Assembly: GCA_964016885.1 (NCBI GenBank)
Contig: OZ024745.1
Coordinates: 12,462,001 to 12,526,000 of the forward strand
DNA: 64,000 nucleotides
Source: Eledone cirrhosa
Taxonomy: Eukaryota
Direction of reading: 5' to 3'
Position 1 is the first letter of the stretch. Each line of letters opens with the position of its first letter. Made by a program: the position numbers and the translations under genes. Below, piece after piece: positions 3,133 through 34,602 of the stretch. The notes beneath the pieces are model-generated. The model saw nothing but the letters and a program-made list of their open reading frames with translations. It was not told the DNA's origin and ran no database searches.

Positions 3133-3553
3133 TCTTTCAAATTTGACCTTTGGCGCCTAAAAATATCTTGGTAACACAACTAAACACCATATATAGTCAT
3201 TTGTATGTATGGACCTGTAACTCCTGATGAAGTGATAGGGGCACCCTAATGACATACAGCATTTCTTGGCCATTTAAAACCTGGTGAAGCTCATCTCTTC
3301 TCTCATAAGGCAAGCAATATGTGACAGAGGAATCAATGATAAAATGGAGTGTAGACTTATATTTGACATCAATATTTTGCTGATTTTCACCAACTTCAAC
3401 ATCAAAAAGATACCAAAACACCCGAAGTGATTGCATTACAATGAAACACTGTTTTAATACATTTTTACAGAATATCTTTAGTACTTGCTGTCTTTACATT
3501 TTCATTTCTCTCAGCATGTGATTGGCTGAAAGTAAACAAATATTCAAGAAACT

Positions 3554-3967
3554 GGCACTACAACGCTATTAGCTGTCAGTCCAGTGGAAAACAGGCGAAG
3601 GTGACGTCACTCGTCAACATCGTTTATTTCCGTATTACTACCACGCGTAAGTGGAGTTTTCACGCGGTTTTTTGAGAGAGAGAGGGAAGAGGAGAGAGAG
3701 AGGGAAGACTTAAAAGGGCCAAATTAGAAAACAAATAGAAAAAACAAATAGAAAACAAGTCATGGTTATAAAGCATATCGATGTAAGTGGAGTTACTTAA
3801 ATGAAAATATAGGTGGCCCTTAAAAGGGCCAAATTAGAAAACAAATTTAAGTTAATTAGAAAACAAGTCATGGTTATCAATGTAGAAAACAGGTCATTCA
3901 TAAATTTAAGTTTTATAATCAAATTTTTTTTACCAACAAATATGACAGCTAATAGCGTTGTAGTGCC
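3554..3967. mobile_element. MITE-like 414-bp unit at the left end of the giant element (internal inverted TIR copy)
   Basis: TGACAGCTAATAGCGTTGTAGTGCC at 3943-3967 is a 25-bp inverted copy of the left TIR, but it is not followed by the AAGAAACT TSD. Confidence 0.7.
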
Positions 3968-4002
3968 CGCAATTCTGTATCTTTACGTATATTGCGCATA
4001 GA

Positions 4003-4243
4003 TACGAGGGTTGACAAAGATACTCTCATGGAATGTGACCAAATGAGGTTTATTTTTCAACATAGTCTCCCTTGCGTTCCACACACTTCTTCCATCGGTG
4101 TTGCAGTACTGAGATCAATGTTTTCCTCGGTAGTGGCAGTTGTAGGACGTCCAGACATTGGGTCATCTTCAAGAATCCCCTATCCTTTCCTAAATTCGGC
4201 TGCCCACTTTTGCACAAAGGAAAATTGTGGTACAATATTGTAA
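4003..4243 (-). mobile_element. Mariner transposon 3' end fragment
   Basis: TA-CGAGGG terminus. Minus-strand peptide ...LQHRWKKCVERKGDYVEK* is the typical mariner transposase C-terminus. Confidence 0.85.
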
Positions 4244-4975
4244 GGTCTGCTTATAGCATTATCCATCTTTCAAAAATGAAGGTCCACATTTCGTCGACTT
4301 CAATACACTTTATTACATTTTATTGTATTGTAAACATTAACTTTTATGGAAATTGTATTACAAAATTTCAATTTAGTTCGATTTTTTGGAATTTATTTAA
4401 CAAACATGGAAAAATAAGAAAAATAAGAAAAAGAATAAAATAATTTGATTGCCTTTAATAAAGAAGATAAATAGAGTAGAACTGATTTCCAAGTCATACT
4501 AATGAAACAAGGTTTTTTTCCATTACTGATATTATCTGTCTGCCGCAAGTCCTGGTAGAAGATGCTACATGAACTAAAGTATTTTACTGAAGGACGCAAC
4601 ATGCTGCAGGATCGAAGAAACGAGCCCATGACTTTATAATGGTTAGTCCAGTACCGTAACCTCTAAGGCATGTGCCTTCACAGAGGAAAGGTAAATCATA
4701 TTATAACAGATTAGATGGGTACTATGTTAGATATTACTATGTGTCATATTATACCAAAGAGGAAGTGAGCTGTATAATAAACATTGATATCAGGTTGATT
4801 CAATAACTACCCGGTCCCAAATATGAACCCATGAACTAATGGTCGTCAGTCAAACACTTTAACCATTGTATGTATGTATACACGTATGGATCGATGGATG
4901 TATGTATGTGTGTATACATGTATGTATGGATGTATGCATACATGTATATATGTAAGTATGTATGCGTGTATGAAA

Positions 4976-7430
4976 ACAACTGGAAGGACTTCAGGAGCTC
5001 GGTCTATGAGGCTTCAGCAGAGGTCCTTGGCTTTGTCACAAGAAAACAAGGACTGGTTTGATGAGAATGACCAGGAGGTCAAGGCTCTGCTAGACAGAAA
5101 ACAAAAGGCACTTGATGCAGTTCTTAAAGGTGGTAGCTCTGTTGGTGACAATTATGAGTGTTACAGACAGGTAAAGAAGGAAGTGCAGGTGAAACTCAGG
5201 GCTATGCAAAATACCTGGTGGAGCAACAAAGCAGATGAAGTTCAAGTGGCATCTGACGGCAACAATGTGAAACTGCCGCACTTTCTACTCACAGAGGTGT
5301 ATGGCCCTTTCAGCTCTCCAGTGGCCCCTTTGAGATCGAAAGATGGCAAGCAATTACTGCGTGACCCAAAAGACACTCAACAGATAGAGAGATCACTTTG
5401 ATGAGCTCTTAAACCAACCATCCCAGGTTGATGATGATTTCCTTTGTTCCATTCCTATTGAACCAGTGAAGCATATGAGATGGATAATGTATCTTCTCTT
5501 GCAGAGGGGACTTCTGTTGTGCATAAGCTGAACTGTGGTAAGTCTCCTGGTATGGATGGTCTGAGTGGAGCGGTTTTGAAGTGTGGTGGTGAAAACTTCA
5601 CGCAGCGCATGACTGACCTCATGAAAATGGTGTGGGAAGATAAGAATGTCCCACAAGAAGGATGCGCTCATGGTGATTCTCCATAAAGTAAAGGACGGCA
5701 AGGACAAATGTGGCAATTATCATGTCATATCCCTTCTTTCAGTAGTTGGTAAAGTTGTGTCGAATATTGATGGATAGATTGATCCCAAGAGTTGCTCTGA
5801 ATGTGTTGCCTGAGTCGCAGTGTGGGTTCAGAAACGACAGAGGAACAGTGGATATGATCGTTTCTGCTCGGCAGCTGCAAGAAAAGTGTATCGAACAATG
5901 TATGGACCTCTACCAGGTCTTTGTTGACTTGACAAAGGCCTTTGACACTGTCAATCGAACTGCATTGTGGGAAAAAATCCAAGGTAGGGTAGAAGATTCT
6001 GCATCTTTTCCATGATGACATGAAGGCTTTGGTCAGTATTGGTGGTAGCATCTCTGAACCAATATCAGTTGAAAATGGAGTGAAGCAGGGGGACATTCCG
6101 GCTCCAACTCTGTTTTCCTTATATTTTACGATAGTGTTTCTCATGGCATTCAAATATTGTTCTCATGGGGTTTACATCAGGTATCGCACTTCAGGAAGGT
6201 TGTTCAACACCAGGCGCTTTGGTACAAGCACAAAAGTATTAACATCTATAATCCGAGAGTTTTTGTATGCAGACGACTGTGATCTTTTTGCACACTCACA
6301 AAGTGACATGCAGCATATTATGAACTCTTTTTCTGCAGCCTGCAGCATTTTAGGCGTCACAATAAGCTTGGAAAAGACTGTTGTGATCTATCAGCCAGTA
6401 CCTGGAAACGAGTACACTGCACCAAGTGTGTACGTGTACGGAAAGAGGCTAAACGTTGCTGACAAGTTTCTTTACCTTGGTAGTACGTTGAACACTTCAT
6501 GCACACATGATAATGAAATATCCTTAAGAATCAAGAAAGCCAGTGATGCTTTTGGACGGCTGCATCAACGTTTATGGTCCAGACGAGGTATCACTATCGA
6601 AACCAAGGTGAAAGTGTATCTGACTTGTGTCGTCTCCTCTTTACTTTATGTTTGTGAAACGTGGGTCACATACAGAAAGCACCTCAAGGATCTGGAGAGA
6701 TTTCCCCAACAATCCCTTCATAAGTTACTTGGGGTGTGGTGGAAAATGTTCGCCAGTGACTTGGAAGTTCTAGAACGGAGCAGGTGCGTGACTATAGAGA
6801 GCATAATCTTTCGGTTGAGGTGGTACAGTCACGTGGTCCGGATGTCTGATGATCGTATTCCAAAACAACTTCTCTATGGAGAACTGTGTGAAGGAAGGCG
6901 ACCACCACATAAACCAAAATGGCGGTATCGGGACTGTATCAGGGGCACCTTGGCTTGTGCTGGAATTTCATCTGACGAATGGGAGAAAATGGCTGACGAG
7001 CGTGTGAAGTTTGATCAAGTCAGGTGGTGAACACTTTGAAACTCGTCGGAGAGAACACCTAACACTGAAAAGGAAGGTGAGGATTGAGACTGTTCTGAAC
7101 TGCCTGCTGTTGAACATCATCTGGTTTGCCAGCACTGTGGTCGAGTCAGCCTGAGCAAAGCTGGTTTGATTAGACATGAATAAAGTCATATCAGTAGACC
7201 TCATGTAGATCATGATCTGAAAATGTACAAGCATAGGAGGTCTTAAAAGATACATGTGAACATACAGCCAGAACAAAGCAATGGAAGGTTTCGGGGGAGC
7301 CTAAAGTTGCCATGTGTGTGCCAGAGGGTGCAAGTATTTGGCTGGTTTAAAGAGTCACATTTGTGCTTCACATTTTTGAACATTTTATCGGGCGATGGCA
7401 ATACTTGAACACGAGTTTGCAGCCATCATA
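4976..7430 (+). mobile_element. 5'-truncated, frameshifted RTE (BovB-like) LINE
   Basis: Broken ORFs carry WFDEND, KSPGMDG, LPESQCGFR..RGTVDM, FVDLTKAFDTV, GVKQG, FLYADD and RIPKQLLYGEL motifs, with C-terminal C2H2-like remnants (CQHCGR, CHVCARGC). Confidence 0.93.
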
Positions 7431-8019
7431 TAGTATGTATGTATGTATGTTGGGTCACTCTTGAGTGCTATTAGTAACATGTAACCCAGTACAACCTGTC
7501 GCGTGGTCGGGTCGTCGGCGACTAAACCGGCAACCCCACCAAGTTTACTTGGTGAGGAGGGTGATTTTGGACACCCTGCAGGACAAAAAACAAAACCTGA
7601 CAAAGGGCGGAAGATCTCATAAGAGTCAACGGCCATCCAAAAGTGCGTAAATATGTATATACACATGTACATATGTATGTATATGTATGTGTGAATATAC
7701 ATGGGTGCATGTGTATGCACATACGCGGGGACATAGAAATAATTGGGCTGGACACCCGATTGCGCGGTTAAACCACTGGGTGTGAAGGACCCCTAGCCTT
7801 TGTCAGGGCATTCTTCTAGGTGAAGGCAACTCAGGAAACTGGGATAACTCCGATATAAAACCTGCGGCTCAGTAGTTACCGATGATGTTGATATTTTCTT
7901 CTTTTCGGGTTATAGCTACTGTCGCTCAGAGAGTGGGATTGGCTCAGTGCACAGTCTTTCCTCATTTAAAAAAATATCTTCATGCACAGGCATTGCACGA
8001 TAAAATTAATTAATAATAC

Positions 8020-8152
8020 GGCCCTTGCCATTCTGAGTTCAAATCCCGCCAAGGTTAACTTTGCCTTTCATCATTACGGGGTCGATAAAATAAAGTACCA
8101 GTAATGCACTGGGTAATTGCTGGCCTTGTGCCTAACGTAGAAACAATTATTA
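8020..8152 (+). mobile_element. tRNA-derived SINE family 1 (Meta/Sauria-like core), 5'-truncated
   Basis: B box GAGTTCAAATCC and core GCCTTTCATC..ACGGGGTCGATAAAATAAAGTACCAG, shared with many copies in the window. Confidence 0.85.
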
Positions 8153-9020: not shown

Positions 9021-9379
9021 TATATATATTTAATATAGAAATGGCTTCAACAGGACTAGAACTGTTTCATACGGAGGAAATCATCAGAAAAGCTGACTGT
9101 CAATGTAATATGGTGGTATTTTCTGGTGGTAGGGGAGGGTAGTAAATTGATGCTAAGTAGTCAAACACATACACACTGACAGGCACTCCTAATTTTCAAG
9201 ATTCATTTATTCTAAAACAAAAGGTTTTCATTGAGTGGCAATATTAAAATGCTCTGCTAAAAGATATAAATGTGTGTGTATACATATATATATGTGTGTG
9301 TTTGTGTATATATATATATGTGTGTGTGTGTTTGTGTATATATATTTGTGTGTGTGTATATATATATATATGTGTGTGT

Positions 9380-10362
9380 GTGCAAATTTCAATAATATTA
9401 ATACACCCTAATGGGGGTTAAACTCCCTATAGTGAAAAGTTTGGCCAATAAATGGAACAAGATTTTACGAACTTATCCTCTGGTTTTGGAGATAGACCCC
9501 CATAACCATATATATTCTGAAACTACATTGCCCAGGGTACTTGTATAAGTATATTTCATTTTAATCAAAGGGTTCATCGGGGGCACAAAACCGCCGCTGA
9601 TACTTTACCTTCGATTTATATGAAATTTAAACCATAGGTAAATGACAAGATATGATGCCTATTCACATCATTTCAGCAAATTTCAATAAAATTACAATAC
9701 CCTAAATCTGAGTTAAACCCTCTATTAGGGTTCACCAGAGGGCACAAAATCCCCGCTGAAAGTTTTTTCGGTTCGATTTATATGCAATTTAAACCATAGA
9801 TAAATGAAGAGATATGATGCCTATTCACAAAATTTCAATACTATAAGACACCTTAATACTATAAGACTCTATTAGGGTTCCCCGGGGGTACAAACCCCCG
9901 CTGAAAACTTCTCCCTTTCATTTTATATGAAACTTAAACCATAGGTAAATGACAAGATATGATGCCTATTCACAAAAGTTTCAATTGATATTTTGAAAAA
10001 AATTATTTACAAGAAACAAAATAAGAATAAGATTTAATAATGCAATTTTGATTTGATATATTACAAAAAAATGATGTTTTCCAATTTTTCATGCATTATA
10101 TTTTACAGCATAGTTACGTCCCTTTACGATCTGAGTTCAAATCCCGAGGTTGACTTTATTTTATCGACCCCGTAAGGATGAAAGGCAAAGTACCAGTAAT
10201 GCACTGGGTAATTGCTGGCCTTGTGCCTAAAGTAGAAACAATTATATTTTACATTGAGTAATATTGAGTTTTTCTCCATAAATTATATCACTGATTTAAA
10301 ATCAATCATTTTCTTACAAAAAAAATGAGTGAAACGCAGCAAGGCGCTGGTAATTCGGCTAG
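9380..10362 (+). mobile_element. Probable non-autonomous Helitron with internal ~150-bp repeats
   Basis: AAACCATAG(G/A)TAAATGA..AGATATGATGCCTATTCACA recurs at ~9629, 9791 and 9936. The 3' end has a CAGC-AAGGC-GCTG hairpin followed by CTAG|T (10359-10362). 5' boundary uncertain. A SINE piece is inserted at ~10106-10245. Confidence 0.55.
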
Positions 10363-10404
10363 TATATATATATATGTGAGTGTGTGTATATATATGTGTG
10401 TATG

Positions 10405-11325
10405 TGTATGTAGGAGAGGTGTAGGTAGAAACTCCATCCTCCGCCACATATTCAAACTATGGATACACAAGAGATGTAGTGGGATCTCAGGAAGTTTAGT
10501 TAAGAATGTAGGCTTTACATGTAGCAGTTGGACAAGTGACATCAAAGTCTGGGAGGACTTGGTAAAAACAATACCGAATTAGCAGCGGAGGGGGTGTTCT
10601 GAAAGGATGGGATGGAAGAAGTTGAGGGAGCTACTGCCGCAGCTGGATACAAAAGGCTTTTCCCTCAGAATAAAAGGTAGACTGTATGATGTGTGCACAT
10701 GAACGGCAATGTTGCATGGTAGTGAGAGCTGGGTGCTGTGTGTAGAAGACTTGCGTAGATTAGAAAGGAATGAAGCTTGTATGCTCCGATGGATGTGTAA
10801 TAGTAATATACGCGAACAGCAAACCATAAACAAACTGTAAGAGAAACTAGGCATAAGAGGAATCAAATGTGCAGTAGAGGAGATTATGTTGGTATGGACA
10901 TGTGATTCGTATGAAGGATGACAGCTACATAAAGTCCCAGAAAGACTTGAGATGAAGTGATAAAAGCCGACCTTGCCCAATTGCATCTCTGAAAGGCAAT
11001 GACACAGAACCAAGATCTCTGGCGTTATGAGGTAATACAGAAACCCCAACTTCCCACAGGCCAAGGCTGAAACATACATACAGTATGCACCACTCCATCC
11101 CACATGCCAATATATCTTTCATGAGAACAGGCCGAAACACTGTAAAGTGGTCGTGATGGTGACACGGTAAAAAACACCCAGTCCACACTGTAAAGTAGTC
11201 GTGGAGGAATCACAACAAAAAAAACCCAGTACTCACTGTAAATGAACTTGGCATTAGGAAGGGCATCCAGCTGTAGAAACCAAGCCAAAATCAGTTCTTT
11301 ATGAGCAAGACATGGTCACCTGACC
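10405..11325 (+). mobile_element. Deleted RTE LINE 3' part (PHD-finger family)
   Basis: CRRGVGRNSIL...WIHKRCSGISGSLVKNVGFTCS and the downstream sequence match 55770-56750. Confidence 0.88.
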
Positions 11326-11655
11326 GCACATGGCTCAGTGGTTAGAGCATTGGGCTTGCAATTGAAAGGTTGTGAGTTTAATTCTCGGACTGAGTGATGT
11401 GTTGTTTCCTTGAGCAAGACACTTTATTTCACATTGCTCCAGTTTACTCAGCTGTAGAAATGAGATGATAGGACTGGGGTCCCTATCATTCCACGGCAAA
11501 AAAAAAACAGCCAGCACTCACTGTAAATTAAGTTGGTGTTAGGAAGGGCATCCAGCTGTAGAAATCAAGACAAGGTCAGCCGACCGGACACTGCCCACAA
11601 CAGGACAACCCATGCTAGCGTAGAAGAACTGACATAAATGATGATGATGATGATG
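11326..11655 (+). mobile_element. tRNA-derived SINE family 2 (CORE-like body, RTE-derived tail)
   Basis: A box TGGCTCAGTGG, degenerate B box, TCCTTGAGCAAGACACTT core and GGTGTTAGGAAGGGCATCCAGCTGTAGAAA...(GAT)n tail. Confidence 0.87.
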
Positions 11656-11724
11656 AAATATAATAGAGTTTTATAGCTTGCTTGAAGCATTGATGAATAG
11701 GAAACACAAATTAAAATTTTGAAA

Positions 11725-12025
11725 ACCAAGTTGAGGGCCTTTGAACCCCAGGCTGCTCCTGATTCTAGATGTGGAAGACGGGACCTTTGGTACCACACAG
11801 TGACGTCCTGTTCGAGAATTGGTCCAGCCCTCAATGCGAAAGTTTGGTCTTAGTCCCGGCAGGATTTTCCATATGTATATCATTGCGAAGGGTAGAGTTT
11901 CAGTTCTTTTAGCCTCTCCCAGTAGCTCATCTCCTTCATTGTGCAATCCTCTTGGTGTAGCTTCGTTGGATTTTCTCAAGTTCCGTGGTTAGTTTGATAC
12001 TATGGCGTGACCACAGCTGGGAGCA
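11725..12025 (-). mobile_element. CR1-group LINE fragment
   Basis: Reverse complement of 8450-8780 (IYIWKILPGLRPNFRIEG...RTGRHCVVPKVPS). Confidence 0.85.
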
Positions 12026-12368
12026 TTCATCATCATTTCATTTTATGTCCACTTTTTCCCTGCTTGCAAGGGTGGGACGGGAACTGATTCTGGCTTGATT
12101 TCTACAGCTGGATGCTGTTCCTAACACCAACCTCATTTACAGTGAGTGCTGGGTGCTTTTTTCCCCGTGGCAACTCCACATCCACTTTACAGTGTGGGCT
12201 GGGTGCTTTTTTGTCATGGCACCTCCACGACTGCCAGTCCTATCATCTCATTTCTACAGCTGAGTAAACTGGAGCAATGTGAAATAAAGTGTCTTGCTCA
12301 AGGAAACAACACATCACCCGGTGTGAGAATTGAACTCACAACCTTTCGATTGCAAAGCCAATGCTCTC
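12026..12368 (-). mobile_element. SINE family 2 copy
   Basis: Reverse complement matches 36317-36660. Confidence 0.85.
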
Positions 12369-12411
12369 AATATGTACACACACAGTAATAATAATACATA
12401 TGAAGACTAAA

Positions 12412-12965
12412 ATCCAAAGAGGGCTCGATAGGGATAAATATATATCAAATATATAAGAACCGTAGAGCAAATATTTATTAAAATAACAGATTAAAGTTTA
12501 AGCAAAGAATCGGCTGCTTTCACCCTTAATGGGATCTTCTGAAACTAAAAAAGAAAAAAAAAAATCAATCTGTGAATGCAGAAGTAAATATTTCGAAAAA
12601 CGTTGCAACCGAAAGAAGACAGGAAGGCGATACTTTGGTTCGTGGAGACGTAGTTTTAGGTATTTCTTCTTGCTTGGTACGGGTATGTTCTTTGTAGAAA
12701 TATTCAGATGTTTCTGCATTATGAATATAAGTCAATAGAGTACTCAGTCAAGGGAGCCAAATAGTAATAATAATAAATTTGAAGACATCCAAAGAGGGCT
12801 CGATAAGGATAAATATATATCAAATATATAAGAACCGTAGAGCAAATATTTATTAAAATAACAAATTAAAGTTTAAGCAAAGAATCGGCTGCTTTCACCC
12901 TTAATGGGATCTTCTGAAACTAAAAAAAAAAAAATCAATCTGTGAACGCAGAAGTAAATATTTCT
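12412..12965. repeat. Direct repeat pair (~180 bp each) with ~190-bp spacer
   Basis: ATCCAAAGAGGGCTCGATA...GCAGAAGTAAATATTTC at ~12412-12594 and ~12787-12964. Confidence 0.9.
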
Positions 12966-13079
12966 AAGCCGAGCTTTCCCAATTGCACCTCTCACGGGCA
13001 ATGACACACGACCATGACCTCTGGCGTCACACAGAAAACCCGACTTTCCACAGGAACATATAGACAATTTTTGTTTTCC

Positions 13080-16000
13080 TTTGTTGTTTTTATGTCCTAT
13101 CAACTAATCCGACCTCCAAAATGCTTGCAATTGACTATTATTTTAGCATATTAACAACAAATATGATTTCCACTGCAATTAAAAATGACTAGCTTTGTGA
13201 ATGGTTTTTCCACCCACTTTCTGCCTTCATTTTTCTACAAAGCTAATCATTGACGATAGGTTTCAAAGTTATATTCATTCATAATATGTGAAAAAAATAG
13301 TCAACTGTGAGCATTGGTGTGATGAAAATGGTAGGAGTAGGTGTTCTGTAATAAATTTACCATATAGTGAAGTATGGGGTAGATTAATGTACTGTGGTGT
13401 GCTTTGTTATAAGTGAGGATTTAAATTTCCACTTTGATTTATGTTATAAAAAAAATTTTTCATTCATTTTTGCATGCGTTATCAACTTCCAAGAAGCTCG
13501 CAGTGGACTATGCTTTTAGCATATTAACAAAAAATATGACTTCCGCTGCAATAAAAAATGACTAGCTTTGTAAATGGTATTTCCTCCCACATCCTCCCTC
13601 CTTTTTTTACAAAGCTAGTCATTTTCATCAGGTTTCAATGTCATAACCATTGATAATATGTGCATAAAATAGTAATTTGCGAGCACCTTTTATGTCAAAT
13701 TGGGTGGTAAGCACAAAAAAAAAAAAAAAAAATGCCAGATGAAAATTTGTCACACCAAAATCAATATCTTGGTGTGATTTGGTGAAGTTTCTACAAAGAT
13801 AGTCATTTTCGACAGGTTTCCATGTCATATTTATTGATAAGTGGAAAAAAAAATAGTCAATTGGGAGCACCTTTAATGTCAGATTGGGTGGTAAGCACAC
13901 ACAAAAAAAAAAAAAGGAAATGGGAAGAAAATTTTTCACACCAAGATCAATAGCTTGGTGTGATGTAGTATGGTGTAACTTGGTATGGTGTGGTTTGGTT
14001 TGGTGAAGTTATGAAATGGAAACCAATTGTAAACGATAGATTCCCATGTCATATTCATTGATAATGTGTGGGAAAATAGTCATTTGCAAGCACCTTTGAT
14101 GTTAGTTTGAGGTGGTAACCACAAAAAAAAAAAAAAATGCAAGTAGCAAATTTATCACATTAATGTCCAAGTGATGTAAATGATAGGAGTATGTGTTCTG
14201 TAATAAATTACCATATAGTGAAGTATGGTTATGGTGTGGATTGAGGTAGATTAATGTGCTGTGGTGTGCTTTGTTATAAGTGAGGATTTAAATTTCCACT
14301 TTGATTTATGTTAGAAAAAAAATTTTTCATTCATTTTTGCACGTGTTATCAACTTCCAAGAAGCTCGCAGTGAACTATGCTTTTAGCATATTAACAAAAA
14401 AATATGACTTCCGCTGCAATAAAAAATGACTAGCTTTCTAAATGGTATTTCCACCCACATCCTCCCTCTTTTTTCTACAAAGCTAGTCATTTTCATCAGG
14501 TTTCCATGTCATAGCCATTGATAATATGTGTATAAAATAGTAATTTGCGAGCACCTTTTATGTCAAATTGGGTGGTAAGCACAAAAAAAAAAAAAAAAAA
14601 ATGCCAGATGAAAATTTGTCACACCTAAATCAATATCTTGGTGTGATGTAGTATGGTGTGGTTTGGTGAAGTTTCTACAGGTTTCCATGTCATAATTATT
14701 GATAAGTGGAAAAAAAAATAGTCAATTGGGAGCACCTTTAATGTCAGATTGGGTGGTAAGCACACACACAAAAAAAAAAAGGAAATGGGAAGAAAATTTT
14801 TCACACCAAGATCAATATCTTGGTGTGATTTGGTGAAGTTTCTACAAAGATAGTCATTTTCGACAGGTTTCCATGTCATATTTATTGATAAGTGGAAAAA
14901 AAAATAGTCAATTGGGAGGTAAGCACACACAAAAAAAAAAAAAGGAAACAGGAAAAAAATTTTTCACACCAAGATCAATAGCTTGGTGTGATGTAGTATG
15001 GTGTAACTTGGTATGGTGTGGTTTGGTTTGGTGAAGTTATGAAATGGAAACCAATTGTAAACGATAGATTCCCATGTCATATTCATTGATAATGTGTAGG
15101 AAAATAGTCATTTGCAAGCACCTTTGATGTTAGTTTGAGGTGGTAACCACAAAAAAAATAAAAATGCAAGTAGCAAATTTGTCACATTAATGTCCAAGTG
15201 ATGTAAATGATAGGAGTATGTGTTCTGTAATAAATTACCATATAGTGAAGTATGGTTATGGTGTGGATTGAGGTAGATTAATGTGCTGTGGTGTGCTTTG
15301 TTATAAGTGAGGATTTAAATTTCCACTTTGATTTATGTTAGAAAAAAAATTTTTCATTCATTTTTGCACGTGTTATCAACTTCCAAGAAGCTCGCAGTGA
15401 ACTATGCTTTTAGCATATTAACAAAAAATATGACTTCCGCTGCAATAAAAAATGACTAGCTTTGTAAATGGTATTTCCACCCACATCCTCCCTCTTTTTT
15501 CTACAAAGCTAGTCATTTTCATCAGGTTTCCATGTCATAGCCATTGATAATATGTGCATAAAATAGTAATTTGCGAGCACCTTTTATGTCAAATTGGGTG
15601 GTAAGCACAAAAAAAAAAAAAAAAAATGCCAGATGAAAATTTGTCACACCTAAATCAATATCTTGGTGTGATGTAGTATGGTGTGGTTTGGTGAAGTTTC
15701 TACAGGTTTCCATGTCATATTTATTGATAAGTGGAAAAAAAAATAGTCAATTGGGAGCACCTTTAATGTCAGATTGGGTGGTAAGCACACACACAAAAAA
15801 AAAAAAAGGAAATGGGAAGAAAATTTTTCACACCAAGATCAATATCTTGGTGTGATTTGGTGAAGTTTCTACAAAGATAGTCATTTTCGACAGGTTTCCA
15901 TGTCATATTTATTGATAAGTGGAAAAAAAAATAGTCAATTGGGAGGTAAGCACACACAAAAAAAAAAAAAGGAAGTGGTAAGAAAATTTTTCACACCAAG

Positions 16001-18250: not shown

Positions 18251-18339
18251 ATATAGCGTGTTTCTCTTTAAATTAAAATCATTAAAATGTAATGCCTATC
18301 TTCTATATCTTAAAGAGTGAGCTTAAATGTGATTGCAAA

Positions 18340-21300: not shown

Positions 21301-23000
21301 TTAGTGTTCAAGTTAGTGTTAGAGATTGTGTTAGTGTTAGTATTTGTTTTTGTGTTAGTATCTATGTTAGCATTAGTATTTCTGTTAGTGTTAGCATTAG
21401 TGTTTATGTTAGTGTTCAAGTTAATGTTAGTGTGAGAGATTGCGTTAGTGTTTGTTTTTGTGTTAATATTTGTGTTAGTATCTCTGTTAGCGTTAGTGTT
21501 TATTTTAGTGTTGAAGTTAATGTTAGCTTAGTTTTCTGGTTAGTATCAGTTTTCAGATTAGTGTTTGTGTTAGTGTTACTTTTAGTGTTAGTGCTCAGGT
21601 TAGTGTTTGTGGTAGTGTTAGTTTTAGTGTAAGTGTTCAGGTTAGTGTTAGTGTTCAAGTTAATGTTAGTTTTAGTGTTAAGGTTAATGTTAGTTTTAGT
21701 GTTAAGGTTAGTGTTAGAGATTGTGTTAGTGTTAGTATTTGTTTTTGTGTTAATATTTGTGTTAGCATCTCTGTTAGCATTAGTGTTTGATGTTTCCATT
21801 AGTGTTAGTGATTGTGTTAGCGTTAGTCTTTGTTTTTGTGTTAAGGTTAGCGTTAGTATTTCTGTTAGTGTTAGCATGAGTGTTTGTGTTAGTTTTCAGG
21901 TTAGTGTTAGTGTTCAAGTTAGTGTTAGAGATTGTGTTAGTGTTAGTATTTGTTTTTGTGTTAGTATCTATGTTAGCATTAGTATTTCTGTTAGTGTTAG
22001 CATTAGTGTTTATGTTAGTGTTCAAGTTAATGTTAGTGTGAGAGATTGCGTTAGTGTTTGTTTTTGTGTTAATATTTGTGTTAGTATCTCTGTTAGCGTT
22101 AGTGTTTATTTTAGTGTTGAAGTTAATGTTAGCTTAGTTTTCTGGTTAGTATCAGTTTTCAGATTAGTGTTTGTGTTAGTGTTACTTTTAGTGTTAGTGC
22201 TCAGGTTAGTGTTTGTGGTAGTGTTAGTTTTAGTGTAAGTGTTCAGGTTAGTGTTAGTGTTCAAGTTAATGTTAGTTTTAGTGTTAAGGTTAATGTTAGT
22301 TTTAGTGTTAAGGTTAGTGTTAGAGATTGTGTTAGTGTTAGTATTTGTTTTTGTGTTAATATTTGTGTTAGCATCTCTGTTAGCATTAGTGTTTGATGTT
22401 TCCATTAGTGTTAGTGATTGTGTTAGCGTTAGTCTTTGTTTTTGTGTTAAGGTTAGCGTTAATGTTAGCATTAGTATTTCTGTTAGTGTTAGCATTAGTA
22501 TTTCTGTTAGTGTTAGCATTAGTGTTTATGTTAGTGTTCAAGTTAATGTTAGTTTTAGTGTTGAGGTTAGTGTTAGAGATTGCGTTAGTGTTTGTTTTTG
22601 TGTTAATATTTGTGTTAGTGTTGAAGTTAATGTTAGCTTAGTTTTCTGGTTAGTATCAGTTTTCAGATTAGTGTTTGTGTTAGTGTTACTTTTAGTGTTA
22701 GTGCTCAGGTCAGTGTTAGTGTTTATGGTAGTGTTAGTTTTAGTGCTAGTGTTCGTGCTAATGTTAGTTTTAGTGTAAGTGTTCAGGTTAGTGTTAGTGT
22801 TTACGGTAGTGTTAGTTTTAGTGCTGCTGTTCAGGTTAGTGTTCGTGTCAGTTTTAGTGTTAGTGTTCAGGTTAGTGTTTGTGTTAGTTTTCATGTTAGC
22901 ACTAAGTTCACTGTTAGAGCATGTGTGAGTGCAAGTGTTATTTTTAAAGTTCGGTTTTAGCTTAAAGTTAGGTTTTCTACTTTCCAGGAAAAAAGTTGAT
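18340..23000. repeat. 4.6-kb degenerate hexamer array (TTAGCG/TCAGCG grading into TTAGTG) with internal ~625-643-bp and 606-bp duplications
   Basis: 6-bp periodicity and strong G/T skew. Duplicated blocks at ~18.9-19.5 and 19.55-20.2 kb. Identical ORF starts at 21633 and 22239 give a 606-bp period. Confidence 0.93.
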
Positions 23001-23139: not shown

Positions 23140-23312
23140 TTATAATAATTCAAATAATAATAACAATAATAATAGTAATAATAATTGTTCTTGTTCATTT
23201 TCTTTGTCTTCTTCTGTGCCTTTGACTGCTTCTGTGCCTTTGACTGCTTCTGTGCCTTTGACTGCTTCTGTGCCTTTGACTGCTTCTGTGCCTTTGACTT
23301 CTTCTGTGCCAT
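23140..23312 (-). other. Exon-like module 3 with an 18-bp tandem repeat
   Basis: CTGAGAGA motif, pyrimidine-rich tract and TTTAG|ATGG acceptor. Phase-1 reading: DGTEEVK(GTEAVK)n..DKENEQEQ. Confidence 0.5.
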
Positions 23313-23611
23313 CTAAATACCAAAAACAAAGAATGTAAAACATATATGTTGCCTATCTCTCAGACTTTACAAAGTGGTGAGGAGATAAAGTTAATTTAAA
23401 GAGCAGTGTGCTCATGCACTGTGATCCTATAATGTAGCTTATAAGCTATTTCATAACTAAAAAACAATGTCAAACATCAACAAAAGTATATACAAATATC
23501 TTTGAATGTTTAAGTTAAACCTAAATAGATCGTATCTAAAGGTCATTAAGTTAAGACTGAACTAAGATCATATCTATAAATCATTAGGTTTAGACTGAAC
23601 TGAGATCATAC

Positions 23612-23711
23612 TTCTTTTCGTCATCTTCGTTTCCCGTGTCTTCTTTGTCTTTGTTGTCATTTTCATTTTCATTTTAGTCATCTGCTTCGTCGTCTTTTTC
23701 TTCTTTTCCAT
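23612..23711 (-). pseudogene. Exon-like module 2 (acidic, with one in-frame TAA)
   Basis: Same acceptor context, donor GTATGA at 23611. Phase-1 reading: GKEEKDDEADD*NENENDNKDKEDTGNEDDEK. Confidence 0.5.
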
Positions 23712-24838: not shown

Positions 24839-24886
24839 TCAGATCCTTTGAAATAACTTTCTTTCTCTTACTGTAACTGGACATAC
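24839..24886 (-). CDS. 48-bp microexon with start codon and NLS-like motif (MSSYSKRKKVISKDL)
   Basis: Acceptor ttttctatttcgtAG and donor GTAAGT. ATG at 24884-24882. Ends in phase 1, compatible with the acidic exons downstream. Confidence 0.5.
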   Translation of the reverse strand, partial: VCPVTVRERKLFQRI

Positions 24887-24916
24887 CTACGAAATAGAAA
24901 ACAGTCGAATAGAGAG

Positions 24917-25647: not shown

Positions 25648-25940
25648 GGTTAGGTTTAGGGTGGGGTAATGTTTAGGGTTTAGTTTTAGGGTTGGGGTAA
25701 AGTTTAGGGTTTAGCTTTAGGTTTGGGGTAAAGTTTAGGGTTTAGCTTTAGGTTTGGGGTAAAGTTTAGGGTTTAGTTTTAGGGTTGGGGTAAAGTTTAG
25801 GGTTTAGCTTTAGGTTTGGGGTAAAGTTTAGGGTTTAGTTTTAGGGTTGGGGTAATGTTTAGGGTTTAGTTTTATGGTTGGGGTAATGTTTAGGGTTTAG
25901 ATTTAGTTTGGTTTGGTTTAGATTTAGGGTTGGGGCTAGA
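25648..25940 (+). repeat. Telomere-like 31-bp tandem array (GGGGTAAAGTTTAGGGTTTAGCTTTAGGTTT)
   Basis: GGGGTAA recurs every 31 bp from 25663 to ~25880; rich in TTTAGGG/TTAGG. Confidence 0.93.
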
Positions 25941-26511: not shown

Positions 26512-26590
26512 GGTTCTTCATCTTTGTATTCATCTTTGTATTCATCTTTGTATTCATCTTTGTATTCATCTTCTTTGTTTTGTCTTCCAT
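26512..26590 (-). other. Exon-like module 1 with a 12-bp tandem repeat
   Basis: Same CTGAGAGA/TTTAG|ATGG acceptor context. Phase-1 reading: DGRQNKE(DEYK)nDEE. Confidence 0.45.
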
Positions 26591-26745
26591 CTAAACAAAC
26601 AAAAATATATATATAAAACATATGTAGCCAATCTCTCAGACTTTTACAACTTTGTCTGATTTACTCGTTTTATTTACAATCCATTAAAATTATAATGGTA
26701 TTAGAATGAAATAGTATGGTAGAATATTAAGTGTTAAGTGTTAAT

Positions 26746-26784
26746 TGAACAAGTAATTTCATGCTTTCGCAATCTTCAGGTTCA
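26746..26784 (-). ncRNA. Second hammerhead copy in the inverted pseudo-LTR (stem III mutated)
   Basis: Same sequence on the minus strand, but GAAA-TTAC-TT breaks the stem III palindrome. Confidence 0.6.
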
Positions 26785-27090
26785 TATTCTGTGGTGACAG
26801 TCAAGTTTACAATTTTCAACTGTAATGAGATGGGTAAATTTTGTGCCTTATATACAGTGAAAAGCGGCTACATGTGTAGTTTCACTGGATTACTGAAGCT
26901 GATTGGTTTAGGCATCACGGTTGGTTGGGCATGTCTAACGACTTCTATTTAGCATCTATTCAAAGCATCAATTGTTTTGCTATTTTTAGAAATGATGAAA
27001 ATAGCATTTTCTAGGGTTTTATACCCCTAAGAATTATTATTGTTCATTTAGTTTGGGTTGGAATTTTGAAAAATATTCCCAAATGCAAAT

Positions 27091-27381
27091 ATGAACTGCA
27101 AAAGCAGAAATCTAATTTACTGCATTAAATGCCCGAATTGTGAAGAACTATATGTCGGTCAAACTGGAAATGCACTATCGGAACGTGCACGGGTGCACCG
27201 ACAGCAAATCAGAGACCCAAATGTCCGTCAGATACCCCTGAGTAACCATCTAGCAGCATGTGGTCAGAAAATATTTATATTTCCATTCTACAAATTACAC
27301 AGGCCAAGTGAAATCAAGAGAAAAATCACAGAAAAGAATTTTATTGATAAATTCCAACCCAAGCTAAATGAACAATTATAA
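27091..27381 (+). CDS. GIY-YIG endonuclease C-terminal domain of a Penelope-like element (truncated)
   Basis: NLIYCIKCPNCEELYVGQT...R..HRQQIR...H...R..TE..FIDKFQPKLN: IY/YVG motifs, CxxC and His residues, conserved R/E/N. Confidence 0.9.
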   Translation: MNCKSRNLIYCIKCPNCEELYVGQTGNALSERARVHRQQIRDPNVRQIPLSNHLAACGQKIFIFPFYKLHRPSEIKRKITEKNFIDKFQPKLNEQL

Positions 27382-27668
27382 TTCTTAGGGGTATAAAAAC
27401 CCTAGAAAATGCTATTTACATCATTTCTAAAAATAGCAAAACAATTGATGCTTTGGATAGAGCCAAATAGAAGTCGTTAGACATGCTCAACCAACCATGA
27501 CGCCTAAACCAATCAGCTTCAGTAATCCAGTGAAACTACACACCAATTGGTCGAAATATAGTTTGCAAAATATAGCATTCTGTAGCCGCTTTTCTCTGTA
27601 TATAAGGCACAAAATTTACCCATCTCATTACAGTTGAAAATTGCAAACTTGACTGTCACCACAGAATA

Positions 27669-27707
27669 TGAACCTGAAGATTGCGAAAGCATGAAAGTAC
27701 TTGTTCA
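27669..27707 (+). ncRNA. Minimal type I hammerhead ribozyme
   Basis: Stem I TGAAC/GTTCA, core CTGAAGA, stem II TGC-GAAA-GCA, GAAA, palindromic stem III A-GTAC-T, cleavage triplet CUU. Confidence 0.75.
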
Positions 27708-27751
27708 ATTAACACTTAACACTTAATATTCTAACATACTATTCAGATTAC

Positions 27752-28125
27752 ATCTATATATATATACACATGCATATATATATACATACATACATACACA
27801 TATACATATATACAAATACATATATACATGCATATATATATATATACATATACAATATGTATAGGATTCCTTTCCCTTTGAGCACATAATTTACAGGGAA
27901 TAACGCGACTCTATGGCTCCGTTAATTTATCTTCATATATACATATATATACATACACACACACATATATATACATACACACATATGCATACACACACAT
28001 GCATATACACATATATACATACACACACATATACATACACACACATATACATACACACATATATACATACACACACATATATATAGATTCATACATACAT
28101 ACACACACACATATATATATATATG
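27752..28125. repeat. (TA/CA)n compound microsatellite
   Basis: Degenerate TATACA/CACATA runs. Confidence 0.9.
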
Positions 28126-29781: not shown

Positions 29782-31166
29782 CAGTGGCGGATTTAACAGG
29801 TGGTGAAGGTGGAAAATGCCGACTGGGCCCCTGCCGACTGGGCGCTTGCAAAAAAAAAAAATTGTAATTTGGGCGATATCCAAAAATACCTCCCCCATGC
29901 CTAGGGCTAAATAACTTCGCTGTTCGCTGCTGATATGAGGCTAAATAACTTCGCTGCTGGCTGCTGAAATGAGGCTATTCCAACAAATTTACATTCCCCT
30001 TTTTTTAGCCGTTAAAAGAAATATAGATTTATTTATTTATTTGAAACGTTTTTGTTAGTTTCATTGTTTTGTTTTTTTGGCGATAATTTTGTTAGTTTCT
30101 TGTTGTTTTTTTTTAGTTTCTTTTTGATTTATTCCTTGTGACAGTGCTTTGAACGTTCAACAGATAAATTGGAAGAACTCAGATGCGATCACAAATTTGA
30201 ACAATTTGTGGACCAGACAAAGAAAGCCTGGAATGACGTGGGATTTGATGCATCTGAAACTAATTTTAAAATAACACGAGTAAGGAGAAGAAAGATTATG
30301 GATGGTGAAGTTTGTGGTGTTGAAAGACTAGCTACTGCTTCAGATAGATATCGCACTGCAATTTATTTTCAATCACTGGATAGTATGATTGGGGAGATGA
30401 GAGCCCGAACTGAAGGAATAAAAAAAATATCTTCAATCTTTGGATTTTTGAGTCCAAATCGACTGGCTAAATGCTCAGATGATGAACTAAAAACACATGT
30501 AGCAACATTGGTAGATAACTTTCCAAATGAATTCACACTGGAACTCAGAAATGAACTCTTTTCTTTCATTGGCCTCTACTTTTCACAGCCAAACGCAGCT
30601 TTAAAACAAAGTGGGGTTATGCCATATCTGAAATTTTTACTGAACAATGACTTGTGTGATGTCTTTCCCGAGTTTGAAATTCTGGTAAGGCTATTTCTCA
30701 CTTTACCAATTGGCATAGCAAGTGCGGAACGCTCTTTCAGTGTTCTACGAAGAATTAAAAATTATCTTCGTTCAACGATGGGCCAGGAGAGGCTATCCAG
30801 TTTTGCCCTGCTGGCAATTGAAAACAAAATTACTAAATCAGTAAACTTGGACCACGCTATAACTCATTTTTCAACTGTTAAAGCTCGCAGAGGTCTGCGC
30901 ATGTAAAAGCAATTTGTGTAAAAGACTAACATATATACAACTTTATTACTTTATTATTTGTTTACAGTACAGCACATCTGTTTGTTTGTTTCAAATAAAG
31001 TATACTTGTAATTTAATTGTCTTCTTAATGATTATTGGTAGCTAAATGGGAAATAAAAAAAAAAACTTTTTCAATACTCGCTCGAAAAGATGGTACTTTA
31101 ATTTTCACTCTGGGACCTCCTTACTGACCAATGCCGACTGGGCCCTATTCCTTAAATCCGCCACTG
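29782..31166 (+). mobile_element. Internally deleted hAT transposon (Tip100/ZMYM1-like), 1385 bp
   Basis: 15-bp TIRs CAGTGGCGGATTTAA / TTAAATCCGCCACTG, 8-bp TSD TACTCCTC (29774-29781, 31167-31174), and AATGCCGACTGGGCCC near both ends. Confidence 0.96.
30169..30906 (+). CDS. hAT transposase C-terminal half incl. dimerization domain (truncated)
   Basis: FPEFEILVRLFLTLPIGIASAERSFSVLRRIKNYLRSTMGQERLSSFALLAIE motif. Confidence 0.9.
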   Translation: MEELRCDHKFEQFVDQTKKAWNDVGFDASETNFKITRVRRRKIMDGEVCGVERLATASDRYRTAIYFQSLDSMIGEMRARTEGIKKISSIFGFLSPNRLAKCSDDELKTHVATLVDNFPNEFTLELRNELFSFIGLYFSQPNAALKQSGVMPYLKFLLNNDLCDVFPEFEILVRLFLTLPIGIASAERSFSVLRRIKNYLRSTMGQERLSSFALLAIENKITKSVNLDHAITHFSTVKARRGLRM

Positions 31167-31824
31167 TACTCCTCCCCCACCATTCTTTACTTTCATCTCC
31201 TCTTTTTCATCCTTTCCACCCCCCCCCCCTCATTTTTGCCCCAATATCACATATCAATCTTAAATTACTTTTCATATGTTGATTTAAAACTGCACTATTC
31301 ACAAGTGTTTTTTAACCTTCATATCATGTCTCCCTATTTTATCTGACGAAAACGCAAATGTCATCGCATGATGATATTTGTTTTTGAAATGCGCATAATA
31401 AAATACATGGAACTCTTTTAACCACCTTTTGATCTTATATTATATATATACATATACATACATAGTAATAATAATTGTTTCTACTTTAGGCACAAGGCCA
31501 GCAATTACCCAGTGCATTACTGAATAATAATAATATTTATACTTATATATGATTATAAATATGGATGGTAGTACTAAGTACTAGCCGGAAGGAGAAAAGG
31601 CTCAATGTAAATTTTCAAATGTATTACAGAAGTTTAATACATTTAATTGGTGATAATTTTTTTTTTACATACATACATACATACATATATATATACAATA
31701 TATTAATAAATGGAAACTATATTTATCATGGGCCACCGCTTTCATCAGATAAAATACATATATATATATGTATGAAACTTAATTATTCGTGTAACGTTTT
31801 TAATAATTATTTGATATTACTTAC

Positions 31825-31895
31825 CGTTTTCTTATCTTTTGATTTACTGTTTCTTCATTTCTCCTGCGTTTGTTGAAATTCCCGCTATTCTCTGG
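31825..31895 (-). other. Candidate non-coding first exon of the minus-strand cargo transcript
   Basis: Strong donor AAAACG|GTAAGT at 31825/31824, just downstream of the palindromic promoter-like element. 5' end not defined. Confidence 0.4.
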
Positions 31896-32171
31896 AGAAA
31901 AATTGCGCCAAACGTTTCCTTTTGAAAGAATAATGTGATTTGTCACGAGATATTACCTCTAAATATGTGTATACGTATACACATTACCTCTAAATATGTG
32001 TATACGTATATACGTATACACATTACCTCTAAATATGTGTATACGTATATACGTATACACATTACCTCTAAATATGTGTATACGTATATACGTATACACA
32101 TATTTAGAAGTACTATCACGTGACAAATCACATTATTCTTTCAAAAGGAAAAGTTTGGCGCCATTTTTCTC
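31895..32171. promoter_or_regulatory. Palindromic element (85-bp arms) with mirrored E2F-like TTTGGCGC and CHR-like TTTGAA sites and an internal 39-bp tandem
   Basis: 31895-31979 vs 32087-32171 are inverted with ~5 mismatches. GCGCCAAA at 31905, TTTGGCGC at 32154, CACGTG at 32117. Promoter function is inferred. Confidence 0.55.
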
Positions 32172-32400: not shown

Positions 32401-32723
32401 CGATAATAAACCGATTATTAATCATTGAAAGACTCAAAATAATAATACTATGGAATATTTTTACTGAGTCCGGTTAAGAGTATACTATTTTCCATTCCCG
32501 AGGGTATACTCTTAAGCAGACTCGACTGTACCTGCGGGGCTAGACCGAGGGGGCGGGGAAAAGTCGGGTCCCATCACAATATTCCCGTTCCATGATAGTA
32601 AGGCCCCTTCACCTGAGAGGCAAAGGTAAAACCTGCAACGATACATTTTCTCAAACAAGAACCTGGTTAATTTCGTGCTCGACAAGTCTGTTATCATAAT
32701 TCAATACACATCAGCAACCAACA

Positions 32724-32781
<58 letters not shown>

Positions 32782-33486
32782 CCCTGTTGTATATCAATAC
32801 TAGCTGCTTCCTACCTCTTTATCAGATAAATATTTTTTTTTACAAGCTGTTTTTTAGTCTGTTTATAGATTCTGCATGGGATTACGTTATTGTTGTTGTT
32901 TAGCCCTAGGTCAACCTTGACTAAACCACAGAATTCCATTATGATCAACGGTATTCCAGCCACGACCATCCCGTCGTTTTAGGTGTATCTAATACGTACA
33001 TTATCAGACATCGTGTTCTTTCTTAATATTTTTTTTAAGGTGGGTGGAAAGAATTGGCTGTTATTTCTAGCAAACTGAGTGCCCACATAGTATGTGTATA
33101 TGGGGGAGGGGTATGTTAAAGTAAGGGAGTACAAGTGTTTGTGAAACATTTAACCATTTACATTATAAATTCAAATGTGTGGGTAGTTCTTGGTGATCGA
33201 ACGAAAGGAACCGATACGAGATCCATTGATTCTGTATAAGCCTATCAGAGGTTCATCGATATACCAACCATTGGTAAATATTCTCCTCACGAAGGGCGAG
33301 AGTGGCGATCGCAAACATATATACATATACACACAAACACATACACACCACATATATATATATATACGCAGAAACACACACATACAATAACGACTAGTAC
33401 TACGATTCTGGAGGAGCGAATGATGGAGAAGATGAAGCTCTCTGTCGCAGAATAAATGGTATTTAATTTTAATAATAATACTAATA

Positions 33487-33544
<58 letters not shown>

Positions 33545-34602
33545 TTCTCAATTGAATTGATTATCATTATCGTTTTTATGGCAAAAGATAGACAGAGAGG
33601 GAAAGAGATAGATAGAGGGAAAGATTTTGACATATATATATATATATATGTATTTTGTTTTTTTATATATATATATATGATAGAAAGAAGAGAAAAAAAC
33701 GAAACCCTTAGAAACGAATAAGAGTCATCAAAGCGATCATATGTATTGCTTTAAACTGTAATGCGAAGGGATACACTAGTATTTGAAGTACCATCATTTG
33801 GGATTTTAACCCTCGGACTTTCCCCTCCTGGTTTTGAAATTTAGGGAAAATTTAGGGGTGACTGGGAATATTACATAATGTAGGGATTTTCTTTTCCTTT
33901 TCTATCATTTCTTATTTATGTATTTATATATTTATTTATCTACTCTCGTGATTGATATTCCGACAAATGTTAGGGGTGTATTTTGGTTTTTTATTATGTC
34001 AGGTATAGCATCCAAAAATTTCTCCCTTCCCCCAATATATATATATATATATATATACAAACAGTGTCCCAAAAAATGTATACACACTTCAACAGCAAAG
34101 TAATCAAAGTGTGTATATATTTTTGAGGGGACACCGTGTGTATATATATATATATATGTGTGTGTATGTGTAACTAGTAAAACTGTTAAAACGCAGCGGT
34201 ATATTCTAATTTGGCCCTTTTAAGGGCCACCTATATTTTCATTTAAGTAACTCCACTTACATCTATATGCTTTAATTAAAAAAATAATAAAAAAACGCGT
34301 GAAAATTTTTTTTTTATTTAAGTAACTCCACTTACGCGTGGTAGTAATACGGAAATAAACGCTGTTTTGCATTCATCGGCTGCTTCAACTGACAGCTAAT
34401 AGCGTTGTAGTGCCAAGAAACTTGTTGATACTTTATAAAACAAATGAAATAGTAAAATATTATTATGCAGTGGAGTTTTGAAACAATCAAAATATTAAAA
34501 CATCATAGAAATACTCTCGTGGGAAGTTACGAAACCACATCTAAACATCATCATCATCATATGTTAACTGCCACGGCTTGTATAATATATATATATATAT
34601 AT

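Follow-up and report, generated by a model that had tools for sequence, protein, structure and literature searches.

A 30.9-kb Merlin-ended element of Eledone cirrhosa as a transposase-less copy of a giant, probably composite transposon family

Can a 30.9-kb segment with the ends of a Merlin transposon be one mobile unit, and how would so large a unit have been built? The question is raised by a window of 64,000 nucleotides from Eledone cirrhosa (G000:C5:12462001-12526000, in a 3.0-Gb assembly), within which all element coordinates below are counted. An earlier note, made from the letters alone, had proposed a giant cargo-carrying element with Merlin-type ends at this place. Our analysis makes it very probable that the window element is a transposase-less copy of a multicopy giant Merlin family, with members mostly of 17-48 kb and about 20 kb of shared cargo, which was likely moved by cut-and-paste through a sister-encoded transposase and likely arose as a composite recruiting outer ends. 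The ends of the window element consist of the following features.

3546..3553 (unstranded), left target-site duplication, 8 bp; present as a single copy at an empty paralogue, C5:3923378
3554..3580 (plus strand), left terminal inverted repeat (TIR), 27 bp, GG start; 385 exact 25-mer matches genome-wide
3554..3967 (plus strand), window-type left module of 414 bp, like a miniature inverted-repeat transposable element (MITE); 98 such ends; occupies the place of the transposase module of a sister subtype
3621..3658 (plus strand), left subterminal block A, identical to 34324-34361 in inverted orientation; 50-75 bp inside used ends
3786..3841 (plus strand), left subterminal block B, matching 34202-34257 in inverted orientation with one mismatch
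3943..3967 (minus strand), inner perfect 25-bp TIR facing back, which lacks an adjoining block A and was never found as a free end
34202..34361 (minus strand), right subterminal blocks B and A
34388..34414 (minus strand), right TIR, 27 bp, the perfect inverted partner of 3554-3580
34415..34422 (unstranded), right target-site duplication, 8 bp, the same 8-mer as 3546-3553

The TIR was perfect over exactly 27 bp, the identical 8-mer stood outside both ends, and the two inverted subterminal blocks were present, one of them identical and the other with one mismatch, all as the earlier note had described. Block A may serve as a transposase-binding site. An alternative boundary with a 28-bp TIR and a 6-bp duplication, possible at the window site alone, was rejected, as the other copies gave 8 bp from the GG start. 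The outer 8-mer was not a constant part of the terminus, because 136 distinct 8-mers were found among 150 flanks, and the empty site contained one copy of it, as befits a variable duplication. The third TIR copy (25 bp, 3943-3967) had been overlooked before; since it faces back, the sequence 3554-3967 resembles a stand-alone MITE. The difference between the left and right ends, which the note had taken for that between the two ends of a transposon, is real, but the two do not simply belong to a single small element; they are distinct modules, both derived from Merlin, whose inner ends are broken or unused.

A genome-wide census of the TIR 25-mer gave the 385 exact matches against none for the reversed control. 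With end classes set by the bases just inside the TIR, 98 window-type left ends, at least 35 transposase-type left ends (among the best 100 of 112 rows) and 175 right ends were counted. A right end faced the left end within 120 kb for 57/98 window-type and 12/35 transposase-type ends, in total for 69 of the 133 listed, and the same cargo lay between the same ends at many loci. The paired ends were 7.9-85 kb apart, with medians of 29.9 kb (window-type) and 31.6 kb (transposase-type); six window-type and no transposase-type pairs stood back to back, and by chance about 0.002 facing right ends would be expected per 60 kb. By hand tally, an 8-bp (once 9-bp) duplication was found in 36 of 51 other units, 28 being exact and eight having one mismatch; the 15 failures are within the 51, and one further untestable unit and three tandem duplicates are outside the count. 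In the flank background, 82 of 8096 all-against-all pairs agreed within one mismatch, true partners included, and one 8-mer duplication was shared by two units. Short family members of 0.5-3.3 kb were also present in the genome. They included fold-backs of 2.8-3.3 kb with two inverted transposase genes and duplications of their own.

Two unrelated MITEs might by accident surround single-copy host DNA, the 8-mer being a chance match or part of the terminus, and the left module does resemble a complete 414-bp MITE. This MITE was, however, never found free, one interior exon had 102 copies, the flanks were variable and an empty site existed. Refuted by the census, the empty site and the ends found beside cargo exons, this explanation can be given next to no credence. 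The pairing of the TIRs is not due to chance, as follows from the family census together with the empty site.

A search with the left flank of the window led to five near-identical loci besides the window, of which four were filled at the same site and one was empty. At the empty paralogue (C5:3923378) the left flank is followed by one copy of the 8-mer and then by the right flank, which bears out the entry of the whole segment as one unit. Relatives of the flank repeat at 75-80% identity likewise had the left and right flanks joined directly, with no element, and for three other giants, which lie in common repeats, other copies of these repeats showed the empty state (two short elements stand in the same listing). 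The empty locus differed from the window at 1/1160 positions of the left flank and by about 2% in the right flank, and the filled C4 paralogue differed at 29/1158 positions of the left flank. The empty locus, being closer on the left than a filled one, is therefore a mosaic produced by conversion or precise excision. The left flank near-identical to the window is about 1.2 kb long at this locus (C5:3.92 Mb), and the conversion tract or precise excision ends at the insertion site.

Spread by segmental duplication or gene conversion, with the TIR pair as an incidental feature, has to be weighed here, since the window copy belongs to a four-fold tandem duplication of 99-99.9% identity and has filled paralogues on C4 and C3, and since a right flank of at least 3.6-5 kb, in which no outer TIR was found, is common to four other copies. 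These duplicates share flanks and the 8-mer, whereas most units of the family had their own flanks and their own duplication; moreover, homology stopped at the TIR and empty sites were present. The explanation is thus refuted for most copies and covers the shared-flank subset alone, and as an account of the family it is very improbable. The four tandem units are at C5:12.46, 12.64, 12.81 and 13.03 Mb with a spacing of about 172-215 kb, and they carry the giant element together with zinc-finger genes; the three other units were tried as empty sites and all three were filled. The element ends are gone from the older paralogues at C4:84.1 and C3:335.6 Mb. The giants with the shared right flank (about 99% identical), at C3:58.37, C4:11.51, C7:71.70 and C3:375.31 Mb on three chromosomes, are part of a larger mobile or duplicated unit. 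Four giant copies at 133-174 kb spacing on the unplaced 757-kb contig C211, whose right flank is shared with the copy at C5:19.33 Mb, represent another tandem array or an assembly duplicate.

No transposase was detected in the window element by tblastn, and it is a non-autonomous copy. In the sister subtype, 6/6 transposase-type giants compared had a DDE_Tnp_IS1595 (PF12762) gene, mostly frameshifted, which lies 350-1360 bp inward of the left end on the minus strand, and at many loci the same TIR was adjoined by PF12762 matches. Two further copies had unbroken frames, of 300 and 302 amino acids (E 2e-19 and 7e-19; other sister-copy scores, E 5e-18 and atlas 0.98). In the 300-residue frame, D149, D210 and E247 were assigned by motif, and the first spacing of 61 residues is in line with the spacing of about 50-70 residues that is quoted between block 1 and block 2. 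The giant at C3:18130166-18178319 (48.2 kb) contains this unbroken frame, the cargo, both TIRs and an A+T-rich 8-bp duplication. The family may include copies that are active at present. Inside the same giant (C3:18.13-18.14 Mb), an array of short related repeats has expanded to about 9 kb, and a second giant, facing outward, ends about 560 bp away. The N-terminus of the transposase shows a CxxC...CxxxC motif with a weak Zn_ribbon_IS1595 match (PF12760, Zn_Tnp_IS1595: 13.7 bits, E 0.06, below the cut-off of 25.4). No relative of solved structure was found.

The available part of PMC8101967, which summarises Feschotte 2004, describes Merlins by a terminal GG, TIRs of 24-462 bp, an 8-9-bp duplication and a D-D-E DDE_Tnp_IS1595 transposase, and, as far as that part goes, without a Zn_Tnp_IS1595 domain. 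Where the earlier note had given a GGNRM start, that paper gives the terminal GG. The present family has a 27-bp perfect TIR beginning 5'-GG, a variable 8-9-bp duplication and, in the sister copies, an IS1595 transposase with a D-D-E triad between the same TIRs. Judged on these sequence features, the family is a Merlin by the PMC8101967 definition, and the Merlin-type ends proposed for the window element were thereby upheld.

The cargo was compared with that of eleven giants taken whole. All were collinear with the window element, each covering 28-68% of it; closer sisters covered 95% and 76%, and a third 38% at a stricter cut-off. Of the 30.9 kb, 21.5 kb were common to the window element and at least three of the eleven giants. 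The pairwise divergence had medians of 2.4-6% over six blocks and was below 1% for the core of the closest sister. A 33-bp cargo marker taken from a 48-nucleotide exon had 102 matches genome-wide; among 100 listed, 39 had both ends, 21 the left only, 22 the right only and 18 neither, so that a correctly oriented end was near 82, and none had a left end facing the opposite way. The same cargo is therefore enclosed by the same ends elsewhere. The repeats of the cargo are listed below.

4002..4440 (unstranded), fragment common to window-type copies, which from its terminus we take to be mariner-like; no Pfam match in the plus frame scanned
4835..7027 (plus strand), fragment of a long interspersed nuclear element (LINE) with RVT_1 (PF00078, E 5e-9), in 5/5 other window-type copies compared
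8018..8141 (unstranded), insertion like a short interspersed nuclear element (SINE), private to the window lineage
9371..19631 (unstranded), shared core cargo with a 145-bp tandem, LINE scraps and 12/24-bp repeats, in at least 6/11 giants
13.1-18.1 kb (unstranded), satellite with a unit of about 1 kb, part of the core cargo
26644..27854 (unstranded), shared palindrome
29782..31166 (plus strand), hAT fragment (PF05699) nested in a palindrome and having an 8-bp duplication of its own; lineage-specific, also in the sister at C3:260.64 Mb

The cargo consists mostly of satellites, palindromes and old LINE fragments travelling with the family, and later insertions are copy-specific. The earlier note had regarded the nested LINEs, SINEs, hAT and Penelope copies as gained after insertion. 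This held for the larger lineage-specific insertions, namely the SINEs at 8018-8141 and 10108-10240, the segment 24205-24535 and the hAT region 29459-31798. It did not hold for the LINEs: to judge from the copies compared, the LINE at 4835-7027 belongs to the subtype master and is not a later insertion, and the LINE scraps at 10241-19631 were present in at least six of the eleven giants. The Penelope copy was unsupported, no match being obtained by tblastn in a weak test with a few long frames of one locus. The hAT fragment sits in one arm of a fold-back palindrome (29208-29782 and 31167-31448); further palindromes in and beside the element were observed at 26644-27854, 31895-32171 and 36118-36569. 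As a whole, the cargo appears to be a passenger and not an adaptive payload.

The spliced gene and promoter-like palindrome that had been suggested for this cargo correspond to the following features.

18400..22900 (minus strand), codon-like Asn/Ala/Asp and Thr/Asn repeat tracts; frames of 60-300 codons, broken in all giants having the tracts (11/12)
23180..23311 (minus strand), candidate alternative exon with an 18-bp repeat; acceptor predicted, splicing not observed
23600..23711 (minus strand), acidic exon (acceptor 23712) that meets an in-frame stop after 12 codons in 7/7 copies showing it
24840..24887 (minus strand), 48-nucleotide exon with donor at 24839; 102 near-exact copies genome-wide
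26517..26590 (minus strand), candidate upstream acidic exon, acceptor predicted
31825..31905 (minus strand), candidate first exon beside the right end, with a GT donor at its end; the donor hexamer is complete in 8/11 rows, window included
31895..32171 (unstranded), palindrome spanning the candidate promoter; its half is directly followed by the right-end module in many copies

In run X4, which is from another sample of the same organism and whose kind is not on record, one contig at depth 52 skipped 23712-24838, an interval bounded by GT-AG on the minus strand; this was absent from the three other runs compared. The splice joint agreed with the exon pair predicted from the sequence, and the spliced frame stopped after 27 codons in 7/7 copies showing the second exon. 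The splicing was thus confirmed in one contig, the product is probably non-coding, and the sequence 31825..31905 with its palindrome may act as the promoter. The transcript would probably represent a captured promoter driving a non-coding or trivially coding RNA. Run X5 (organism B) covered 28/30 bins of 22900-27900 with near-identical pieces, at a depth of about 0-8 in most cargo-specific bins, and run X6 gave read-length pieces at depth 2. As these signals fit a related species and carry-over alike, no claim on the species range is made. A functional helper, either RNA or peptide, that aids transposition or spread could explain why 20 kb are kept. It would accord with the spliced form in one run, with the retention in most copies of the 48-nucleotide exon and the first-exon donor beside the right end, and with a transcript that lies on the transposase strand and runs towards the transposase. 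The early stop in 7/7 copies of the spliced exon, the frames broken throughout the repeat tracts, the large internal deletions in copies still having duplications, and a conservation no clearer than expected at 2-6% divergence (by informal comparison) render such a helper improbable.

How the giants were built can be read from their inner ends. The first 1.55 kb of the transposase-type giants matched a 1752-bp short element at 87-89% with gaps; at the place of the right TIR of that element, 7/8 transposase-type giants had a hairpin with only the inner 12 bp of the TIR. One right-end type is a fold-back of about 180 bp with a 10-bp inner TIR remnant, and the right type of the window is a lone end. 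The window-type inner TIR was followed by C in 77 exact copies and by A, G or T in none; with the same next base in 77/77, it has left no free insertion. At C2:127.56, C4:113.21, C3:251.74 and C3:42.09 Mb the duplication belonged to an end outside the older end, one giant was inserted in sequence found uninterrupted in short family members, and the subtypes showed mixed left and right ends. Two element-derived end modules whose outer ends are used and whose inner ends are bypassed are what defines a composite, or macrotransposon, and the giants show this build. With the inner ends truncated or unused (77 versus 0), the giant likely arose as a composite recruiting outer ends.

Instead, gap-filling or fork-stalling template switches (Pack-TIR/FoSTeST) could have copied the cargo into the middle of a single ordinary Merlin, which would leave the family the same but change its birth. 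The mixed ends among the subtypes would suit this route, as would a unit at C3:260.68 Mb in which host flank meets a foreign right module at an AT microhomology, with the ends of another copy type; in its available part, PMC8277862 prefers template switching for animal Pack-TIRs. Against gap-filling stand the truncated inner TIR remnants that flank the cargo on both sides in the transposase-type giants, the whole MITE-like module with its unused inner TIR, and the several units that draw their duplication from an end outside an older one, all of them traces that composite formation leaves. We regard gap-filling as a real but minor possibility; it and the composite route are not mutually exclusive.

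Bacterial composite transposons such as Tn5 and Tn10 move the DNA between two elements by their outer ends. For the composite reading, the following course can be proposed. An ordinary 1.75-kb Merlin would first have lost its right TIR, leaving the 12-bp remnant in a hairpin. Next, the transposase would have brought the left end together with a distant end of the family, as in the bacterial composites or the maize Ac/Ds macrotransposons, and the 20-kb interval would have been amplified. In the window subtype, a MITE and 4-5 kb of old repeats would have replaced the transposase module, the inner TIR being skipped in the absence of block A. Finally, insertion into or beside short members, together with template-switch repair, would keep supplying new outer ends, so that growth continues, and on one occasion 11.5 kb of host sequence, a zinc-finger frame among it, would have been enclosed. 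This host sequence is as follows.

34415..45946 (unstranded), host flank copied into the 41.5-kb sister C3:260642967-260684456
41969..42985 (minus strand), C2H2 zinc-finger frame of 339 codons; the C3 copy differs at 3/1017 nucleotides and is open

The sister C3:260642967-260684456 has its own exact 8-bp duplication. It consists, in order, of the window element, the old right end with the 8-mer, the window sequence 34415-45946 and a new 688-bp right module, which the flank joins at a short AT microhomology. The flank differed from the window at 16/4194 and 51/7689 bases, and a second, already broken zinc-finger frame was also enclosed. The left 2.3 kb of this sister were 2.3% off and its outer right end was of another type; the likeliest route is therefore repair of a resident C3 copy from the window locus. 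A multicopy Pack-TIR is defined by host sequence with an identifiable TE-free parent, inside TIRs and with distinct duplications. Here a parent was found for the 11.5-kb zinc-finger flank, which is single-copy as a unit, in the window locus beside an element, and none was found for the 20-kb core. The paralogues at C4:84 Mb and C3:335.6 Mb were tried as further zinc-finger transductions and rejected as segmental paralogues with a shared left host flank. At C3:72919598-72922154 (C3:72.92 Mb), two right ends facing the same way enclose C2H2 zinc-finger frames, which may represent a second capture; the 10 kb examined contained no outer left end to match. Of the 5' part of the zinc-finger gene (window 42810-43240), many copies of 89% identity are spaced regularly at 100-200 kb on C20, C27 and C16 (709 candidates), which suggests large tandem arrays of a zinc-finger-bearing unit.

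Several results weigh against the reading of a mobile composite family. No duplication was found in 15 of the 51 units, and 41/98 and 23/35 left ends were without a listed partner in lists limited by mismatches. Six of the duplications accepted rely on a partner beyond the nearest listed end, picked after the fact, and some are A+T-rich. Most transposase frames are broken. The empty paralogue C5:3923378 may be a converted or excised allele and not a never-filled site. The zinc-finger flank was probably copied into a resident C3 element, and the unit bearing it was single-copy among 40 scored matches. Moreover, no donor locus for the 20-kb cargo was found among 19 stretches near end-less exon matches or unresolved copies, four of which had right ends, and end recruitment is therefore not separated from gap-filling.

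Two other features of the window lie outside the element. The exons at 1099-1200 and 2431-2568 (plus strand) are the last two of a gene, with the element about 1 kb beyond its stop; it looks like a PLP-dependent dehydratase/racemase, which Pfam did not confirm, and the metabolic gene of the earlier note rests on this resemblance. At 60903-63683 (plus strand) is a 927-codon frame with reverse transcriptase, RNase H and integrase domains, of a long terminal repeat (LTR) retroelement.

Among known systems, the Merlin superfamily (IS1016/IS1595-related) shares with the window family the terminal GG, the TIR length, the 8-9-bp duplication and the single IS1595 D-D-E transposase. For the largest Repbase-listed Merlins, the repeat coordinates in the available table of PMC8101967 reach 13,661 (Merlin-2_DR) and 10,335 (Merlin-1_DR), no total lengths being given there, and the available part of PMC13282606 reports two recent Merlin families with 11 insertions and 28,998 bp. 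The window family differs from the catalogued Merlins in its 17-48 kb, its 20-kb non-transposon cargo, its composite ends, the capture of a host gene and the weak sub-threshold zinc-ribbon match of its transposase (E 0.06). Animal Pack-TIRs, including the multicopy Ssk-FB4 (PMC8277862, in part), resemble it in host DNA within TIRs, distinct duplications, transcription and template-switch junctions. The median captured piece in those elements measures 224 bp, multicopy cases are few, and the word Merlin does not occur in that paper, whereas here about 20 kb occur about 70-130 times in the genome, and one subtype has the transposase in cis. The nearest mechanism is that of the maize Ac/Ds macrotransposons, in which the outer ends of two elements move the intervening DNA and the inner ends are bypassed; the case in the accessible part of PMC3260210 concerns one Ds-Ac pair that moves as much as 100 kb, while the present composite is a stable amplified family with decayed inner ends. 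Teratorn, Polinton/Maverick, the 16-20 kb Chondrus CACTA elements and Starships belong to the same size class of 15-50 kb or more, and internal TIRs are reported for Teratorn as they are found here (PMC6431247, in part). Neither the PolB, integrase and capsid genes of Polinton/Maverick nor the herpesvirus genes of Teratorn were found: the frame listings of the copies, judged by reading and by Pfam on seven frames with no profile search, showed neither viral genes nor any for polymerases or recombinases, the long frames being LINE, LTR-retroelement, hAT, Tc1-like or low-complexity. Unlike in those giants, the size comes from non-coding cargo. According to the available part of PMC6431247, where Merlin is not mentioned, transposition efficacy drops once the cargo exceeds about 6 kb. 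In the literature searched no giant Merlin family was described, most subscription journals and Repbase being outside reach. The idea of an undescribed giant cargo-mobilising element thus gained support from an amplified family with shared cargo, and size, composite build and host-gene capture set it apart from known Merlins.

Animal cut-and-paste transposons are thought to be lean, yet here stretches of about 30 kb have apparently been moved, many dozens of times, by a transposase family of 300 amino acids, and the 69 paired units amount to about 2 Mb of the genome. Standard repeat annotation would likely split such giants into satellites, LINE scraps and MITEs. The living copies record the transition from small to giant in broken inner ends, unused internal TIRs and new outer ends. 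TIRs with and without block A offer a natural test of end requirements, and the transposase is a candidate for the mobilisation of large cargo. The family provides a concrete route for the transfer of host genes between chromosomes, shown once for a C2H2 zinc-finger frame. The cephalopod expansion of C2H2 zinc fingers and its link to transposons are called an open question in the available part of PMC12513265. It is conceivable, though on balance doubtful, that a still-competent giant Merlin acts as a natural vehicle for gene transfer of 20-50 kb, which would extend its ends over host DNA, re-seed intact C2H2 genes on other chromosomes and so aid the dispersal of that family.

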